From: Escherichia phage EcS1
Sequence record: NC_055721.1
Direction: 5' to 3' (one strand)
Length of the DNA: 64,000 nucleotides
Shown here: piece after piece, positions 20,385 to 40,842 of the stretch
How the letters are laid out: every line of letters starts with the position of its first letter
Numbering within the stretch: position 1 is the first letter of the stretch
The notes under the pieces: model-generated
Told to the model about the DNA's origin: nothing
The model's input: only the letters and a program-made list of their open reading frames with translations
The model's database searches: none
Made by a program: the position numbers and the translations under genes

Positions 20385-20585
20385 TTAGGCATCATATTGC
20401 ACCTCAAATACACCATAATTTGAAATGGCAACATTGACATGACAATACTCACCTTCATCAGTAAGAACTAAAGCCATAGCACCATTCGGTGAAACCTTCT
20501 CAATTTGATAAAGCTTCCCTTCAGTGAAAAGTTCATCATATGGAGGGAACACACGTTTAGCAAGCAGGTTCGTAGCAATCATCAT
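20385..20585 (-). CDS. Hypothetical small protein (30.3-like region)
   Basis: ORF only; overlapping alternative ORFs make gene structure uncertain. Confidence 0.3.
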   Translation of the reverse strand: MMIATNLLAKRVFPPYDELFTEGKLYQIEKVSPNGAMALVLTDEGEYCHVNVAISNYGVFEVQYDA

Positions 20586-20781
20586 TTGCAGCCTTTAAAA
20601 GGGTTAATTCTGATTCCATGTGAACAGATTCAGTACCATCTGACCATGAAACTTCATATGCTGGTTCAACCTTGTATTTCAGGATTCCAGGTGTATACAT
20701 TATAACCACACCCGGGATAAATCCTGAAATATGCTGAACTGGGGTTCCTAGTTCAAATTTCACTTTATAACCTTGACCCAT
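20557..20781 (-). CDS. Hypothetical small protein
   Basis: ORF only. Confidence 0.3.
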   Translation of the reverse strand: MGQGYKVKFELGTPVQHISGFIPGVVIMYTPGILKYKVEPAYEVSWSDGTESVHMESELTLLKAANDDCYEPAC

Positions 20782-20926
20782 TCTGGGAATTCGATGAAAT
20801 CAGGAGCGTCAATTTCACAAATCATCATACCTGCATTCACAGTAATATTACCTACTTCAATCATAGGATTTGATTGAAGGCTTTGTGATAAGCGTTTTGC
20901 ATCAGAAACTTGCACGAAAAGAATCA

Positions 20927-21376
20927 TTATTTCACCCCATAAGAAACGAAAGCTTCGCCAGTCTTTTTGACCACAATAACTCGTACACCATCAGAAGCAT
21001 TTCTGAGTTGACTTACCGCAAAGTCTTTAGCTTCTTGTTCAGTAAAAGGACCATTTGGTAGAGGCAGATTGCTTTTGCTTGTAGGAATAGTGATAGTCCA
21101 GAAATCTTGTTCAGTATCAACACGAATAAACTTCTTAGATATTTCATTCTGTAAGAACATACACCAAACGTTGTCGAACTCGCCTTCATTTGCTTTGAAG
21201 GTGCCTTTATCAGTACGAACTGCAATGATGTTTCCATCCTTATCTAGTTCAGCAACTTCAAACTCACCGAAACCTATTAAACGTTTCCATGCAGAAGCAA
21301 AGCCTGCACTACGGTCTTCCATGAATTGTTTACCAGCTTCAGTCCATTTGTAAACGATTTTTTCAGACGTCAACAT
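20927..21376 (-). CDS. Hypothetical protein
   Basis: Start at internal ATG (MLTSEK) preceded by GAGGAAATTG RBS and a UUCG hairpin. Confidence 0.45.
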   Translation of the reverse strand: MLTSEKIVYKWTEAGKQFMEDRSAGFASAWKRLIGFGEFEVAELDKDGNIIAVRTDKGTFKANEGEFDNVWCMFLQNEISKKFIRVDTEQDFWTITIPTSKSNLPLPNGPFTEQEAKDFAVSQLRNASDGVRVIVVKKTGEAFVSYGVK

Positions 21377-21394
21377 AACAATTTCCTCAGAGTA

Positions 21395-21408
21395 GGGCCC
21401 GAAGGCCC
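21395..21408 (-). promoter_or_regulatory. Intercistronic UUCG-tetraloop hairpin (GGGCC-UUCG-GGCCC)
   Basis: Plus strand GGGCCCGAAGGCCC between stop at 21417 and start at 21376. Confidence 0.6.
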
Positions 21409-21416
21409 ATTTTAGA

Positions 21417-21779
21417 TTAGATAGTGAATTCAGATGAAACGATATCCCATAATGCTTCACGCTGCTCATCAGTAGTTTTCATACTTAACACATGACGCAA
21501 CCATAACTTAACTAACATTTTGCGATTAGAACCGTTCCAAGATGGATGAGTACCTAAATCTCGAGTACGAACATCATCATGAAAACCAACTTTAATTACT
21601 GAACCTTTCAAAGAAACATCCAGCGTAATCCCGTTTTCGAAAGCAACATGAACATAGTTATCTTCCCAATACATGTTGATATCACACACTGTACCGTTTT
21701 CATGTTTCCATAAACATACAGTAGAAACATCCCATGCATTAGCTTTAACATATTTACGTTCGAAGTTTAAGTAGTTCAT
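21417..21779 (-). CDS. Hypothetical protein
   Basis: ORF; start placed at Met downstream of the promoter at 21811-21839. Confidence 0.4.
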   Translation of the reverse strand: MNYLNFERKYVKANAWDVSTVCLWKHENGTVCDINMYWEDNYVHVAFENGITLDVSLKGSVIKVGFHDDVRTRDLGTHPSWNGSNRKMLVKLWLRHVLSMKTTDEQREALWDIVSSEFTI

Positions 21780-21810
21780 TTTGTTATCCAAGTTTGCTGA
21801 TTGAGTGTAC

Positions 21811-21839
21811 ATAATACCACACTCAATCAGCGTTGTAAA
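21811..21839 (-). promoter_or_regulatory. Early promoter (-35 TTTACA, 17 bp, -10 TATTAT) embedded in 13-bp inverted repeat
   Basis: Arms GCTGATTGAGTGT (21796-21808) and ACACTCAATCAGC (21819-21831) flank the -10. Confidence 0.5.
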
Positions 21840-21842
21840 CAC

Positions 21843-22346
21843 TTAGAACGAACTTTTTACTACTTGTGGTTCTTTAACGAGTTTGAAACGAGAAATGCCT
21901 TTAAAAACAATAACTTCATCATAAGTATTTTCATGAAGCCATGCTGCAGCCCACTCTTCTGCTTGTTTTTCGCTCAAGTTTTTCGCACGAATCAAGAAAT
22001 CGGTATCTTCTTCTCTAGCAACAAGACAACCATAGTCTAAATCTTCTAGAACTGGTTCAACTTCTTTTTCTGGCTCGTAGTCTTTAACTTCTGTGAAGTA
22101 CTGGTATTCGTTTCCATAAATCCAGCAATCACCATACCCTTGTCTTGAGAACTGTCCAAGTTCATCTAAACGATAAAGCTCTTTCTTACCATCAAAGCTG
22201 ATTTTTAGAACATCAGTGTTATTAACTAGTTCAGTAATCATAAACGGTTTATTGCTGAGATAGTTTGCAACTGCAGTATTGATAGTAGGCGCTTCTTCAA
22301 CAAATTCAGCCGCGTCAGCTAGTTTGTACCAGTGGTTTAATTCCAT
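21843..22346 (-). CDS. Hypothetical protein
   Basis: 167-aa ORF preceded by UUCG hairpin and GAGGAAATT RBS. Confidence 0.45.
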   Translation of the reverse strand: MELNHWYKLADAAEFVEEAPTINTAVANYLSNKPFMITELVNNTDVLKISFDGKKELYRLDELGQFSRQGYGDCWIYGNEYQYFTEVKDYEPEKEVEPVLEDLDYGCLVAREEDTDFLIRAKNLSEKQAEEWAAAWLHENTYDEVIVFKGISRFKLVKEPQVVKSSF

Positions 22347-22361
22347 AATTTCCTCAAAGTA

Positions 22362-22375
22362 GGGCCCGAAGGCCT
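22362..22375 (-). promoter_or_regulatory. Intercistronic UUCG-tetraloop hairpin
   Basis: Plus strand GGGCCCGAAGGCC between adjacent minus-strand genes. Confidence 0.55.
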
Positions 22376-22380
22376 AGTTA

Positions 22381-22746
22381 TTAAGCGATTGTGGTCCAGT
22401 TATCTAAATTGATAACACCTTTATCTTTCATTTGTTGAATCAATGCTTCAGCACGAGTACGACCATTTTCATACCATGTGCAATCTTCATCATCATAAGT
22501 CTCAGAACGAATGCGACCTAAGATGACAGTTTTCAGAACATATTCTTCACCAGTAAACCAGTTAGTCAAACGAATTTTCCAAGAGAAATCATCTGACTGA
22601 CCATCAGGAGTCATGCAATAAACCAGTTCAAATTGCTCCATAGATAATCCCCACTGAAGTTCTTTAACTGATTGAGCTTTGTAGCCATCATGATCTTTGC
22701 ATTTGATGAAAGCGTTCAGATTAATAGTTTTCATTTTATTCTCCAT
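22381..22746 (-). CDS. Hypothetical protein
   Basis: ORF; start at ATG 22746 or 22734 (GGAG RBS); promoter upstream. Confidence 0.4.
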   Translation of the reverse strand: MENKMKTINLNAFIKCKDHDGYKAQSVKELQWGLSMEQFELVYCMTPDGQSDDFSWKIRLTNWFTGEEYVLKTVILGRIRSETYDDEDCTWYENGRTRAEALIQQMKDKGVINLDNWTTIA

Positions 22747-22763
22747 TTGTTGATTGAGTGTAC

Positions 22764-22791
22764 ATCTTAACACAATCCTAGGAGAAGTAAA
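22764..22791 (-). promoter_or_regulatory. Early promoter (-35 TTTACT, 16 bp, -10 TAAGAT)
   Basis: Minus-strand reading; initial transcribed sequence shares TGATTGAGTGTACA with promoter at 21811. Confidence 0.45.
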
Positions 22792-22795
22792 CACC

Positions 22796-22990
22796 TTATT
22801 TTACATGACTGAATTCTACATCAGACCAGATGCCGAAAGGCGGAAGATTAGGTTCTTCTTTAAAGGCTAACTTTTTGACATCAGTCCAAGGCCAACAGCA
22901 AACTTCGTGCTCGTATAACCAGCATGTTCCTTGCAAAGGACTCTCAGGATGCATTTCTATAATTTTATAAACCAAAGTTTTCTTGAACAT
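22796..22990 (-). CDS. Hypothetical small protein
   Basis: Start moved to internal ATG with GAGGTG RBS; the track start lies inside the terminator hairpin. Confidence 0.35.
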   Translation of the reverse strand: MFKKTLVYKIIEMHPESPLQGTCWLYEHEVCCWPWTDVKKLAFKEEPNLPPFGIWSDVEFSHVK

Positions 22991-23015
22991 ATTCACCTCA
23001 TACAGATACAAAAAT

Positions 23016-23033
23016 GGGAGACCGAAGTCTCCC
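23016..23033 (-). terminator. UUCG-tetraloop terminator (GGGAGAC-UUCG-GUCUCCC then AUUUUUGU)
   Basis: Plus GGGAGACCGAAGTCTCCC; member of a dispersed repeat family. Confidence 0.7.
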
Positions 23034-23038
23034 ATAAC

Positions 23039-23218
23039 TTATGCTACAGCTCGCGGCTTTCCAAAACGAGAAGCATCGTCGCGTAACACGGCTCGTGCAC
23101 GACGCATAATCTTCTCAACTGTCTGATTAATACGCTTGTTCGACCCACGCTTATATTTCGCGCGTTTAGAGGTACCAACTACTTCTTTAACTGCTTGTTT
23201 CTTAGCTTGCTTAGCCAT
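23039..23218 (-). CDS. Small highly basic protein (59 aa; MAKQAKKQAVKEVVGTSKRAKYKRGSNKR...), not in ORF track
   Basis: ATG to TAA ORF verified by manual translation; Lys/Arg-rich; followed by terminator. Confidence 0.4.
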   Translation of the reverse strand: MAKQAKKQAVKEVVGTSKRAKYKRGSNKRINQTVEKIMRRARAVLRDDASRFGKPRAVA

Positions 23219-23539
23219 TTTATTCTTCCAATCTTGGAGTAAAGTTAGCTCTATGACTTACGGTTTCCCTGCATAGAGCCGTTTTCTGTTTGGTCATTTC
23301 ATGGCAGACCTACCAGAAGGTTTCGTTTATTTTACGTCTAGATAACCTACAACTACGACATCATACTACTTCTATCTGTTGCACACCGTTAGCTGGCCAT
23401 AGGCTGGGTCCGGGTCAGATTTCTCTGGGATAGAATATACATCAATGACTGTATAGGCCATGAGGTCACTCGGATTGTGAATCATTGTCCATCCGGTAAC
23501 ATGCCCTTGCCGTAATATGAACAAGTCCTCAAGGGGTAC

Positions 23540-23788
23540 TTATTTCAAAGTCACGATGAAGTGACGGACTGCTTTACGAGCTGCAGAACACAATGGCTTA
23601 GCATATTTCAGTTCATCTTGAATAGCCAGTTCAGTAGCCAAAGCTTTCTGAGAAGGATTCAGATGTTTGAAATATTCCAGGATGTCGAGAGCTTCAGCTT
23701 TAACATCAATGGAAGCACCATAGTTATCATGGCCTGCATTCCAGGATTTACGTTGGATGTCGAGAATAGATTTGATTAGTTCTTGCAT
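23540..23788 (-). CDS. Hypothetical 82-aa protein, possibly RIII (lysis inhibition accessory) by size and position next to gene 31
   Basis: 82 aa as T4 RIII; adjacent to 31; sequence identity not verified. Confidence 0.4.
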   Translation of the reverse strand: MQELIKSILDIQRKSWNAGHDNYGASIDVKAEALDILEYFKHLNPSQKALATELAIQDELKYAKPLCSAARKAVRHFIVTLK

Positions 23789-23901
23789 TATAGAGCCTCA
23801 ATATGAGGTAAAAATTAGGAGACAATCATCGGTTAACTAAGGTCCGACTGCCATTATCTCCACATAGAAGTGATCCTGTTAATGGTCACCACTTCATAAA
23901 T

Positions 23902-24255
23902 TTATTTATACACTACGCCTAACGACTTATAATGCGCAGCTACAAATTTTTGTTTTACTTCTTTAGGTTGTTTAATACCTAAAGCAACAAGTGGATGAAT
24001 CACGTTTTTAAACGTTGGGTTACTTGCAAGATAAGGAACCAAATCACCTACTTCAATGAAACCAGTTGGAACTTCATCGCCAATGGAATGAACTTCCATT
24101 ACTTCTGGTAATTGACCTTGTGTTTCTTTGCCTAAAAAGATTCCAGATTCAGATGTTTTATCATCACCTGCTTGGGACGGTTCAGAGACAAAAATAATGT
24201 GCTCACCTAGAGCTTTAATTGGGAGTTCCATTTTATTACCTGTTTGGTAGACCAT
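23902..24255 (-). CDS. 31: Co-chaperonin gp31 (GroES-like, capsid folding)
   Basis: Matches T4 gp31 as recalled (LPIKALGE, VSEPSQAGD, HPLVALGIKQPKEVKQKFV, HYK). Confidence 0.85.
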   Translation of the reverse strand: MVYQTGNKMELPIKALGEHIIFVSEPSQAGDDKTSESGIFLGKETQGQLPEVMEVHSIGDEVPTGFIEVGDLVPYLASNPTFKNVIHPLVALGIKQPKEVKQKFVAAHYKSLGVVYK

Positions 24256-24287
24256 GAGTAAATAATATCACTCATGGTCTAAAGCAT

Positions 24288-24611
24288 TTAACCAACAAAC
24301 TTAACCAGATGTTCCATCTTCATTCCATTAAAGGAAACCAGTTTGTCGATGCTAAAGCCACGCCATTGTTTGATTTCAGTATCAAATGCTGGAACCATAT
24401 CTACAGCTTCTTTACGAGGCTTACTAGGATTCACATAGCTTTCATAGATTGCAGGGTCAACCAGTTTACCAATTACATCTTTATCACGAGAAGCTTTCAT
24501 TACACGCATGGTGCCATCAGCTTTTTCAAAGACTACTTCAGAAGTACCCATTGCCAGTTTAGTTTTCAAGACTTCACGCAGAGCTACTTTTTGATCTTCA
24601 GTTAATTTCAT
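24288..24611 (-). CDS. Hypothetical protein (31.1-like)
   Basis: 107-aa ORF between cd and 31. Confidence 0.4.
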   Translation of the reverse strand: MKLTEDQKVALREVLKTKLAMGTSEVVFEKADGTMRVMKASRDKDVIGKLVDPAIYESYVNPSKPRKEAVDMVPAFDTEIKQWRGFSIDKLVSFNGMKMEHLVKFVG

Positions 24612-25163
24612 TTATTCGATTCCACAAAAGTTTTCAATTCGATTCCAGTCAAGAGACTTCAAATTAGTACGAGAATATTCGATGACTTCAAGACCTGAAT
24701 CACGTAAGATGTCATCCCAATTATCAGGAGAACGATCATATTTTTCAGCATAAACAACTTTCTTAATACCTGACTGAGCAATAGCTTTAGAACAATCAGG
24801 ACAAGGAGAAGCTGTTACGTACATCGTGGCGCCATCAATAGACGAGCCATTACGAGCAGCAAACAAAATAGCATTCAATTCAGCATGGATTTCATTACGA
24901 GCAGACCAAGAACTATGGGCTACTCGATGTTCTGCTTTAAGACCTACTCGATGATGGCGTTCACCTGGAATAAGTTTACCTTTACCTAACCAACCTTGTT
25001 CTGCAGCATGGTCACAACAGTTTACACCACCAGATGGAGTGCCATTATAGCCAGTAGAAATGATGCGACCATTCTTTTCAATGACCGCACCTACCTTCCA
25101 AGAACAACATTTAGATTCTTGAGAAATCAGATATGCAATCTGAAGATAAGTGCTAGATTTCAT
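24612..25163 (-). CDS. cd: dCMP deaminase
   Basis: Zinc-binding cytidine/dCMP deaminase motifs HAE (VHAELNAI) and PCPDC. Confidence 0.85.
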   Translation of the reverse strand: MKSSTYLQIAYLISQESKCCSWKVGAVIEKNGRIISTGYNGTPSGGVNCCDHAAEQGWLGKGKLIPGERHHRVGLKAEHRVAHSSWSARNEIHAELNAILFAARNGSSIDGATMYVTASPCPDCSKAIAQSGIKKVVYAEKYDRSPDNWDDILRDSGLEVIEYSRTNLKSLDWNRIENFCGIE

Positions 25164-25507
25164 TAAATCACCAAGTAAGTTGAGCGTTTAGTAGAAACCA
25201 ATTTTAGTCCTTCAATTGGTTCGACAATATTCTTTACAGTACCAATTGTGATGAATTCTGCATCTTTAAAACGATTCTTTTTATCGTTAAAGACTGTACC
25301 CATGTATTGGTAACCTAATTCTACGCCATGATTGTTTACAGCAATCAATACTGCATCATATTCTTCATCAGGGACCATTGAGACTGCGTGGTCCATACGC
25401 AGTTCGGTTAACACTTCATCGATGCCTTTTTGAGATACTTCACCACGTATACCAATCAAGTTCGCACGAAGAATTTTATCAATCTTTTCTTTTAGCATAT
25501 TGATCAA
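25163..25507 (-). CDS. Hypothetical protein downstream of and overlapping DAHP synthase gene
   Basis: 114-aa ORF overlapping the DAHPS 3' end by 29 nt; no confident motif. Confidence 0.4.
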   Translation of the reverse strand: MINMLKEKIDKILRANLIGIRGEVSQKGIDEVLTELRMDHAVSMVPDEEYDAVLIAVNNHGVELGYQYMGTVFNDKKNRFKDAEFITIGTVKNIVEPIEGLKLVSTKRSTYLVI

Positions 25508-30904: not shown

Positions 30905-30933
30905 TTTAATATCCTCATTTTGTTGGTAGGAGA

Positions 30934-30962
30934 ATCTTATCACAACAAAATGAGGATGTAAA
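30934..30962 (-). promoter_or_regulatory. Early promoter (-35 TTTACA, 17 bp, -10 TAAGAT) inside 13-bp inverted repeat
   Basis: Arms CCTCATTTTGTTG (30913-30925) and CAACAAAATGAGG (30943-30955); the downstream arm contains the alc SD (GAGG). Confidence 0.55.
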
Positions 30963-40143: not shown

Positions 40144-40169
40144 TTTATTCTCCTTGTTGGTGTAGAAGC

Positions 40170-40198
40170 ATAATACCATACCTCTACACCGTTGTACA
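40170..40198 (-). promoter_or_regulatory. Early-type promoter (-10 TATTAT, -35-like TGTACA) flanked by inverted repeat GGTGTAG/CTACACC
   Basis: Cassette nearly identical over ~45 bp to the one at 58003-58042. Confidence 0.45.
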
Positions 40199-40537
40199 CT
40201 ACTTATTGAAAGTCTTTTTGATCAATGCAATCATTTCTTCTGCATTGCCTTCGTAGACAGTCAAAGTTATCGACTCATCTTTTATTTTTTCAAAGTATTT
40301 GAATTCACCTTGTGCTAGTTCAAAGTAAGGGACAAAACCACCTGAACCTGCAACTTGCCCATTGGCAAACTCGATTTCATCTACATAAAGGTCATAATCA
40401 CATTTACTAACATTTCGAACAGTGAACCAACCACCATTCTTATCGATCAAACGAACCATTTCATTGTTACAATGAGCATTTTCCATGAAAGCTGAGGTGC
40501 ACTCTTCTTTCAAGCGATATTTTTTATCAACTTGCAT
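40199..40537 (-). CDS. Hypothetical protein
   Basis: 112-aa ORF. Confidence 0.4.
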   Translation of the reverse strand: MQVDKKYRLKEECTSAFMENAHCNNEMVRLIDKNGGWFTVRNVSKCDYDLYVDEIEFANGQVAGSGGFVPYFELAQGEFKYFEKIKDESITLTVYEGNAEEMIALIKKTFNK

Positions 40538-40829: not shown

Positions 40830-40842
40830 CAGATACAAAAAT

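Follow-up and report, generated by a model that had tools for sequence, protein, structure and literature searches.

The closest described counterparts of the element analysed here are the PeSLs, early promoters combined with a stem-loop that can overlap the -10 sequence (PMC2839356; PMC4122927). In these cassettes a sigma-70-type early promoter, a stem-loop, a Shine-Dalgarno (SD) sequence and a start codon share one intergenic region (Arbiol et al. 2010, PMC2839356; Comeau et al. 2014, PMC4122927), and in RB49 and phi1 the stem-loops most often lie between -35 and -10 or overlap -10. PeSLs occupy hyperplastic regions with variable ORFs adjoining, are repeated within a genome and have been implicated in cassette exchange; crossovers were mapped in or next to their stem-loops and excised mini-circles were detected (PMC2839356). 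One PeSL stem-loop reduced expression of a downstream lacZ gene in the manner of a strong terminator (PMC2839356). The element in front of the T4 gene 30.7 homologue is like the PeSLs in composition, position and setting. It differs in that its arms are of mixed sequence, whereas those of RB49 are polyG/polyC, and in that it surrounds the -10, whereas the stem-loops of the T4/PST-group PeSLs were placed upstream of the promoter in the 2014 paper (PMC4122927).

A second comparison is with the T4 hairpins that hide a ribosome-binding site (RBS) in long transcripts and contain an internal promoter (e, soc, 49, I-TevI/II/III, segB and Aeh1 mobE; PMC2988022), for which only read-through transcripts fold, as predicted here. 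In those cases the internal promoter is late or middle and the 3' arm lies over the SD or AUG, whereas the 30.7 promoter is early and both signals stand outside its stem. The seg43(25) hairpin of Aeromonas phage 25 is likewise a very stable stem immediately 5' of an unsequestered RBS, but it belongs to another gene and another phage group, and its description mentions no promoter in the loop (PMC2988022). The intrinsic terminators and UUCG intercistronic hairpins of T4-like phages also place a stable intergenic stem directly after a stop codon; the 30.7 stem differs from such terminators (for example that at 23014-23035) in being without a U-run and in having a 10-nt loop that holds the -10. 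Dyad symmetries at T4 early promoters had reportedly already been noted by Liebig and Rüger (1989).

The window (the whole 64-kb stretch of DNA that was analysed) is from a T4-like phage (Tevenvirinae), and the region under study corresponds to the T4 cd / 31 / rIII / 30.x block on the minus strand. Its closest records are T4-like phages of Kosakonia, Serratia and Enterobacter, with a patchy identity of ~75-80%. The 30.7 homologue is preceded by an ORF of 167 amino acids (ORF167) to which nothing in T4 corresponds between 30.8 and 30.7, and the gene behind the next promoter upstream (22792) is the T4 30.8 homologue (Table 1). Further upstream, the canonical terminator at 23014-23035 limits read-through into the 22792 promoter. 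We note that the block also contains a second repeated cassette, GGGCCTTCGGGCCCTACT(T/C)TGAGGAAATT, a UUCG-tetraloop hairpin with an SD, at ~22346-22375 and ~21380-21408 on the minus strand. Its two copies, which stand before unrelated ORFs, are 28/29 identical, and they alternate with the early-promoter cassettes with a period of ~955-966 nt. Tandem gene duplication was considered as the origin of the repeated cassettes and rejected, as ORF167 shows no relationship to the ORF that follows 30.7.

Table 1. Features around the gene 30.7 promoter in the window, and arms of the orthologous 30.7 stems
Feature	Position	Strand	Description
Canonical terminator	23014..23035	-	GGGAGAC-UUCG-GUCUCCC and U run; terminator scan; ~220 nt upstream of the 22792 promoter
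Paralogous early promoter cassette, 30.8 homologue	22746..22792	-	GTTTAC (22792-22787), N17, TAAGAT (22769-22764), leader GTACACTCAATCAACAAA
Upstream ORF, 167 aa (ORF167)	21843..22346	-	PHROG 24808
-35 hexamer GTTTAC, T4-type early promoter	21835..21840	-	2 nt past the stop codon of the upstream ORF (21845-21843)
Stem, 5' arm	21819..21831	-	GCUGAUUGAGUGU in RNA; within the spacer, 5' of the predicted start
Loop, 10 nt	21809..21818	-	ggTATTATgt with -10 TATTAT (21816-21811); inverted repeat and promoter scan
Stem, 3' arm	21796..21808	-	ACACUCAAUCAGC; also the opening of the C/A-rich leader; inverted-repeat search
Remaining leader and start codon	21777..21795	-	aaactt, GGA (weak SD, 21789-21787), taacaaa, ATG (21779-21777)
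Downstream gene, T4 gene 30.7 homologue, 120 aa	21417..21779	-	56% identity to T4 gp30.7; PHROG 1582
Orthologous stem, T4 group			5' arm GGTACAGG(T) / 3' arm (A)CCTGTACC
Orthologous stem, Marfa-like			GGTGTAGGAGTA / TACTCTTACACC; includes a G·U
Orthologous stem, CHI14-like			GGTGAGGGTCT / AGACTCTCACC; includes a G·U
Orthologous stem, L002			CTCCGTTGTATGT / ACATACAACGGAG; compensatory with respect to L015
Orthologous stem, L015			CTCCGAGGTTT / AAACCTCGGAG; compensatory with respect to L002
Orthologous stem, L010			TGTAGGAGAC / GTCTCCTACA
Orthologous stem, L014			TTGGGTGGT / ACCACCCAA

The two ORFs are separated by a gap of 63 nt which, on the minus strand, runs from the TAA of ORF167 (21845-21843) through gt, GTTTAC (21840-21835), aac, GCTGATTGAGTGT (21831-21819), gg, TATTAT (21816-21811), gt, ACACTCAATCAGC (21808-21796), aaactt, GGA and taacaaa to the ATG (21779). 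The inverted repeat within it (GCTGATTGAGTGT at 21796-21808 on the plus strand against ACACTCAATCAGC at 21819-21831) is complementary at 13/13 positions, with 10 nt between the arms, and the description given in the initial annotation, a 13-bp palindrome flanking the -10 TATTAT of an early-type promoter, is therefore accurate. The predicted early promoter of the 30.7 homologue, recognized by its consensus match, is GTTTAC-N18-TATTAT; a generic promoter scan of the site also returned TTTACA-17-TATTAT with a TG extended -10 at -15/-14, formed by T21819, the final base of the 5' arm, and G21818. From the spacing to the -10 (6-9 nt after it), the start of transcription is predicted at ~21806-21802, inside the 3' arm. 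The stem begins 11 nt past the stop codon of the upstream ORF and 6 of its 13 pairs are G·C. Its arms were said to lack an obvious SD, and the sole SD-like triplet, GGA (21789-21787), indeed stands 6 nt 3' of the stem, with the ATG 16 nt after the stem. The 23 nt upstream of the promoter (gtagtaaaaagttcgttctaagt), where the upstream ORF ends, are ~70% A+T against 62% in the window and include an A5 run. Perfect inverted 13-mers with a gap of 3-30 nt had seven placements in the window, against a mean of 0.1 in 200 dinucleotide shuffles (12/200 of which gave any placement at all). An Rfam search of 20500-25500 with E up to 1 gave no match on 21796-21831 and two chance-level matches elsewhere. 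A bidirectional promoter was also considered and set aside: by eye the plus strand has a -10-like CATAAT in the loop, with no acceptable -35.

Transcripts that cross ORF167 into 30.7 carry both arms of the stem. In folding calculations this read-through RNA reached -28.9 kcal/mol (z = -6.83; none of 200 shuffles was as stable), RNA starting after the -10 was unstructured at -0.3 kcal/mol, and the DNA hairpin by itself gave -13.9 kcal/mol (z = -6.5). Transcripts of the promoter itself, predicted to start downstream of the 5' arm, cannot form the stem and have an open leader; on this model, the stem is predicted to exist only in transcripts that arrive from upstream. Such read-through RNA should come mainly from the 22792 promoter, because of the canonical terminator further upstream at 23014-23035. 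Of the two possibilities initially offered for the palindrome, our analysis gives most support to the hairpin in read-through RNA, as the RNA folds only with both arms and the mismatches tolerated in related stems show a G·U bias on the sense strand (see below). A stem of 13-14 bp is short for RNase III. Classical intrinsic termination is unlikely because no U-run follows the stem, here or in any orthologue, and an intrinsic terminator was rejected as a candidate for the 30.7 stem itself: it is followed by AAACUUGG, without a U-run, fewer than half of its pairs are G·C (6/13) and the terminator scan made no call.

Set against the described systems, the 30.7 element belongs to the already described PeSL cassettes and is not the binding site of a new regulator. 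It combines a sigma-70-like early promoter (GTTTAC-N18-TATTAT, a consensus match only), a 13/13 stem around the -10, and an SD (GGA, weak) and ATG at the 3' end of the cassette, and it lies in a hyperplastic setting, the rIII-30.x region, with ORF167 absent from T4 and a paralogous cassette nearby. With the internal-promoter hairpins of T4 it shares the property that RNA from the predicted start lacks the 5' arm and is unstructured. It lacks the feature that defines them, a stem over the RBS, as its stem ends 6 nt before the GGA and 16 nt before the ATG.

The paralogous cassette at 22792 lies 953 nt upstream, and its promoter region matches that of 30.7 at 84% identity across 32 nt. Only two exact occurrences of the motif TGATTGAGTGTACA exist in the 64 kb, at 21798-21811 and 22751-22764, the second of which begins at the final base of the -10 TAAGAT (22769-22764) of the GTTTAC-N17 promoter. 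A recurrence of the motif after the -10 of the next promoter upstream had been described earlier, and this was found, although its coordinates were one base out (22751-22764 and not 22752-22765); the proposal that the two promoters have an initial transcribed sequence in common also held. However, the leader GTACACTCAATCA(G/A)CAAA is one case of a G-poor, C/A-rich leader consensus that is present at most early promoters of the window (CCTACACCAACAA, CTCAATCA and others) and also in orthologues, so that the shared initial transcribed sequence is an instance of this common consensus and no separate signal. In IMG/VR, the exact leader 20-mer was found only at 30.7 or 30.8 promoters, on five related contigs. 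The 22792 spacer contains only a degenerate 5' arm (GATTGTGT) and folding of this promoter region gave no significant structure (z = -0.51); on both counts it was rejected as a full copy of the palindrome. Long-range pairing between the 5' end of the 22792 transcript and the 5' arm (11 nt) was judged weaker than the local 13-bp stem.

The cassettes also recur between genomes. From the -35 to the ATG, the 30.7 cassette is 63/64 identical to that of a CIP9-like phage, although the 30.7 proteins share just 70% identity and alignment of the neighbouring genes shows many more mismatches. A near-identical cassette with diverged flanks would fit cassette exchange or homogenisation, and adds to the evidence that such cassettes move or are homogenised. 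We note that a CHI14-like phage (L039, ~470-560) has the 22792 cassette (spacer ttctcctaggattgtg and leader ATGTACACTCAATCAACAAATGGAG) at its own 30.8 promoter, where, read on the reverse-complement strand, it directly follows a UUCG terminator; the 30.7 promoter of the same phage has another leader and stem.

The region upstream of the 30.7 homologue was compared in T4 and 30 IMG/VR loci. Nearly all lineages of the 30.7 promoter have a stem around the -10, built from at least nine different arm sequences (Table 1); the orthologous hairpin of T4 itself is at ~129,918. For 11 lineage representatives, pairing of the two arms of the same promoter averaged -17.7 kcal/mol against -9.35 kcal/mol for cross pairs, and no permutation reached the observed value. 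Since the arms differ among orthologues and their complementarity is kept, a sequence-specific operator is excluded and selection on pairing is favoured. The internal mismatches of strong stems, counted under an equal penalty for G·T and A·C, were six G·T and no A·C (p = 0.016), and a variant of the 30.7 palindrome (L041) has an A-to-G change that produces a G·U pair, a seventh event of the G·U type against none of the A·C type; the bias consists of these 6-7 events, some of them non-independent. This one-sidedness points to a constraint on a single strand of sense polarity. As judged from the sequences, that strand would most simply be RNA, the non-template DNA strand being the alternative. 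A U-run after the stem was absent from every orthologue (T4 and the 30 IMG/VR loci). The stem leaves the SD and AUG free in this phage, in T4 and in most lineages, and includes or covers them in L002, L015 and the alc promoter, while the distance from stem to SD varies among orthologues. Because both signals are outside the stem in most lineages, direct sequestration of the RBS is not the conserved function of the 30.7 promoter element.

The presence of the 5' arm also varies with what stands upstream. Only in two lineages (L008 and L013) does a canonical terminator directly precede the -35, and in both the leader is kept and the 5' arm is absent; with ten lineages that have a hairpin and no terminator, and two that have a terminator and no hairpin, the anticorrelation rests on these two lineages. 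In all ten hairpin lineage classes the upstream stop codon abuts the promoter. Within the window, a terminator precedes the 22792 promoter, whose fold is not significant. In T4 alone, hairpins were found at 0/6 promoters with an upstream terminator against 15/44 without, a trend with p of about 0.1.

A scan for GTTTAC-N17/18-TAnnnT identified ten intergenic early-type promoters in the window, all on the minus strand, of which four or five show pairing of spacer with leader; folding gave stems that bracket or abut the -10, with strong cases at 40830, 40199, 30963 (the alc promoter) and 21840. A permutation test of self against cross pairing was chosen over a single consensus structure since the stems of orthologues are in different registers; across the ten window promoters, spacers paired with their own leaders at -11.5 kcal/mol and with those of other promoters at -6.7 kcal/mol (p = 5e-5). 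The complete T4 genome behaved similarly, with 50 candidate early promoters giving -9.8 kcal/mol for self and -6.1 kcal/mol for cross pairs, a difference that no permutation equalled; of the 50, 17 were past the 5th percentile of cross pairs, and perfect palindromes of 10-14 bp surround the -10 at positions 73939, 65799, 57990 and 20612. The T4 GenBank and RefSeq records carry no annotated promoter features, and our literature search found no paper mapping T4 start sites or 3' ends.

Some of these promoters deserve separate mention. That at 40199 is bracketed by GGTGTAGAGG/CTTCTACACC; here (40159-40190, minus strand) the promoter is GTGTAC-N18-TATTAT, and the arms, 10 bp including one G·U pair, resemble those of the 30.7 promoter of Marfa-like phages. 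The alc promoter (30911-30957, minus strand) has a perfect 15-bp stem, ATCCTCATTTTGTTG/CAACAAAATGAGGAT, with the -10 TAAGAT in the loop and an SD (GAGGA) within the 3' arm, and the stop codon of rnlA overlaps its -35. The T4 alc promoter (~136336) is of the same design with other arms. It has a near-identical spacer, -10 and leader (aagtccctcgtgttgtgtTATAGTagtcttact and onwards) to a T4 early promoter 13 kb away at ~123093 in the alt.-2/-3 region, the two being paralogous cassettes within T4.

The structure of the 30.7 stem-loop is real and non-random, and it is conserved through different arm sequences with a G·U signature on the sense strand. We propose that it is a PeSL-type composite of early promoter and stem-loop whose hairpin probably insulates gene 30.7 from read-through RNA; this role is favoured because the stem is stable, follows closely on the upstream stop codon, is built from the spacer and the leader, and is absent from the promoter's own RNA. 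The spacer of a strong sigma-70 early promoter (GTTTAC-N18-TGgTATTAT), otherwise unconstrained, would have evolved perfect complementarity to the opening 13 nt of the leader. Local initiation would then give RNA without the 5' arm and with an open leader, and read-through RNA, chiefly from 22792, would form a hairpin of 13-14 bp at about -24 to -29 kcal/mol. Insulation might be achieved by attenuation of the polymerase, as reported for one PeSL stem-loop (PMC2839356), or by locking a C/A-rich leader or standby region that the weak SD needs. The same hairpin may, as a further effect, protect the 3' end of the upstream message, and in a second putative role the cassette could supply short homology for exchange between and within genomes. 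Covariation at an orthologous promoter, the G·U bias and the loss of the arm alongside a terminator are not stated in the PeSL and T4 hairpin papers that we found, although the older T4 literature may cover part of these results.

One alternative explanation is that the inverted repeat is a neutral by-product, made and kept perfect by mutation through templated quasi-palindrome correction or through gene conversion and recombination between cassettes. T4 is the classic system of templated quasi-palindrome mutation, a process that could keep the arms perfect without selection. T4-type phages recombine at very short homologies (PMC9391042), and cassettes are indeed common to paralogous promoters and to different genomes, as the 63/64 identity illustrates. 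The T4 record adds a further point: 14 bp at 133300-133313, in a promoter region whose -10 is bracketed by the arms GGTAGAG/CTCTACC, are given there as the inverted complement of an earlier sequence. It is harder to see, however, how such a process would give this one promoter a hairpin, with another sequence each time, in lineages as distant as T4 and the Marfa-like, CHI14-like and Karamvirus-like phages, or why the 5' arm should be lost only where an upstream terminator removes read-through; in addition, the one-sided G·U bias indicates selection on one strand of sense polarity. We regard a purely neutral origin as rather unlikely.

Another possibility is that the element acts at the level of DNA as a recombination hot spot, with a hairpin, a cruciform or stalled replication attracting breaks (endonuclease VII, gp46/47) and so making the cassette mobile. 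Crossovers in or next to PeSL stem-loops and excised mini-circles (PMC2839356) would agree with this, as would the stability of the DNA hairpin alone, the absence from T4 of ORF167, which lies between two similar cassettes, and the alternation of the UUCG hairpin and SD cassette with the promoter cassettes. A cruciform, however, needs both strands to be paired, and every tolerated mismatch is a sense-strand G·T; nor would a link to the absence of an upstream terminator be predicted. Loops of 10 nt, as here, disfavour cruciform extrusion. This explanation therefore seems improbable to us, and we hold an equally low opinion of a third, in which the stem is a 3'-end stabiliser or processing barrier that shields the 30.8 and ORF167 message from 3' exonucleases after cleavage in the leader, any effect on 30.7 being incidental. 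A role for the upstream gene would suit the position of the stem, which begins 11 nt past the stop codon of that gene, and the spacing between stem and SD, which varies among orthologues, and stable intercistronic hairpins without a U-run are common nearby (UUCG at ~22350-22375 and 21385-21408). A stabiliser would, however, leave unexplained why the 5' arm is consistently upstream of the start, which excludes it from the promoter's own RNA, and the hairpins that cover the SD in L002, L015 and alc (30911-30957) point to the downstream gene.

The operator for a DNA-binding regulator suggested in the initial annotation, a palindrome bound by a dimeric phage or host protein that would control the 30.7 promoter and, through a half-site, its neighbour, for example in early shut-off, is very improbable: a perfect palindrome centred on the -10 does have the geometry of a repressor site, a half-site does recur at the 22792 promoter and reviews describe the shut-off of T4 early promoters as incompletely understood (PMC3014915; PMC2988021), but the arms are wholly different between orthologous promoters with pairing retained, other promoter-bracketing hairpins of the same genome use unrelated arms, the second promoter has one arm only, and the tolerance of G·T but not A·C mismatches is unexpected for a site in duplex DNA. 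That proposal was to be given up if a genome search found no enrichment of the motif near promoters, and with two copies in the 64 kb, and only the 30.7/30.8 promoters of a few relatives in IMG/VR, it is refuted on those terms.

Returning to the insulating hairpin, its wider implications can be considered. In T4-like phages, perfect palindromes centred on the -10 of GTTTAC promoters should be annotated as PeSL-type cassettes and not as operators or terminators. The comparative result (the same promoter with different arms, G·U tolerated, and loss of an arm with a terminator) provides a testable hypothesis for the uncoupling of closely packed early genes from transcription that reads through, and the orthologous hairpin in T4 makes the model phage usable for this purpose. 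Perhaps hairpins that bracket the -10 are a general, selected 'promoter-embedded insulator' of Tevenvirinae, in which the spacer is antisense to its own leader, although we consider this generalization speculative and doubtful. If true, RNA derived from upstream would be separated from local RNA in transcription, translation or decay, and this might be one cause of the rapid, as yet unexplained fall in early gene expression. For T4 itself, the literature that we found contains no description of a class of insulators at the -10 position conserved by covariation across genera.

Two further observations concern inverted repeats at other promoters. The 14 bp at 133300-133313 of the T4 record, in the cd.3 early-promoter region, where the arms GGTAGAG/CTCTACC bracket the -10, are annotated as 'inverted complement of previously reported sequence; corrects the early promoter Pe133295', and this is either a genuine inversion of the loop that the repeats enclose or an error of early sequencing at a hairpin. 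In the window, the gene 31 homologue is preceded (24248-24281, minus strand) by a middle promoter with a MotA box (ATGCTTTA) and a 10-bp palindrome, TAGACCATGA/TCATGGTCTA, around the -10 TATTAT, a 'PmSL'-like arrangement.
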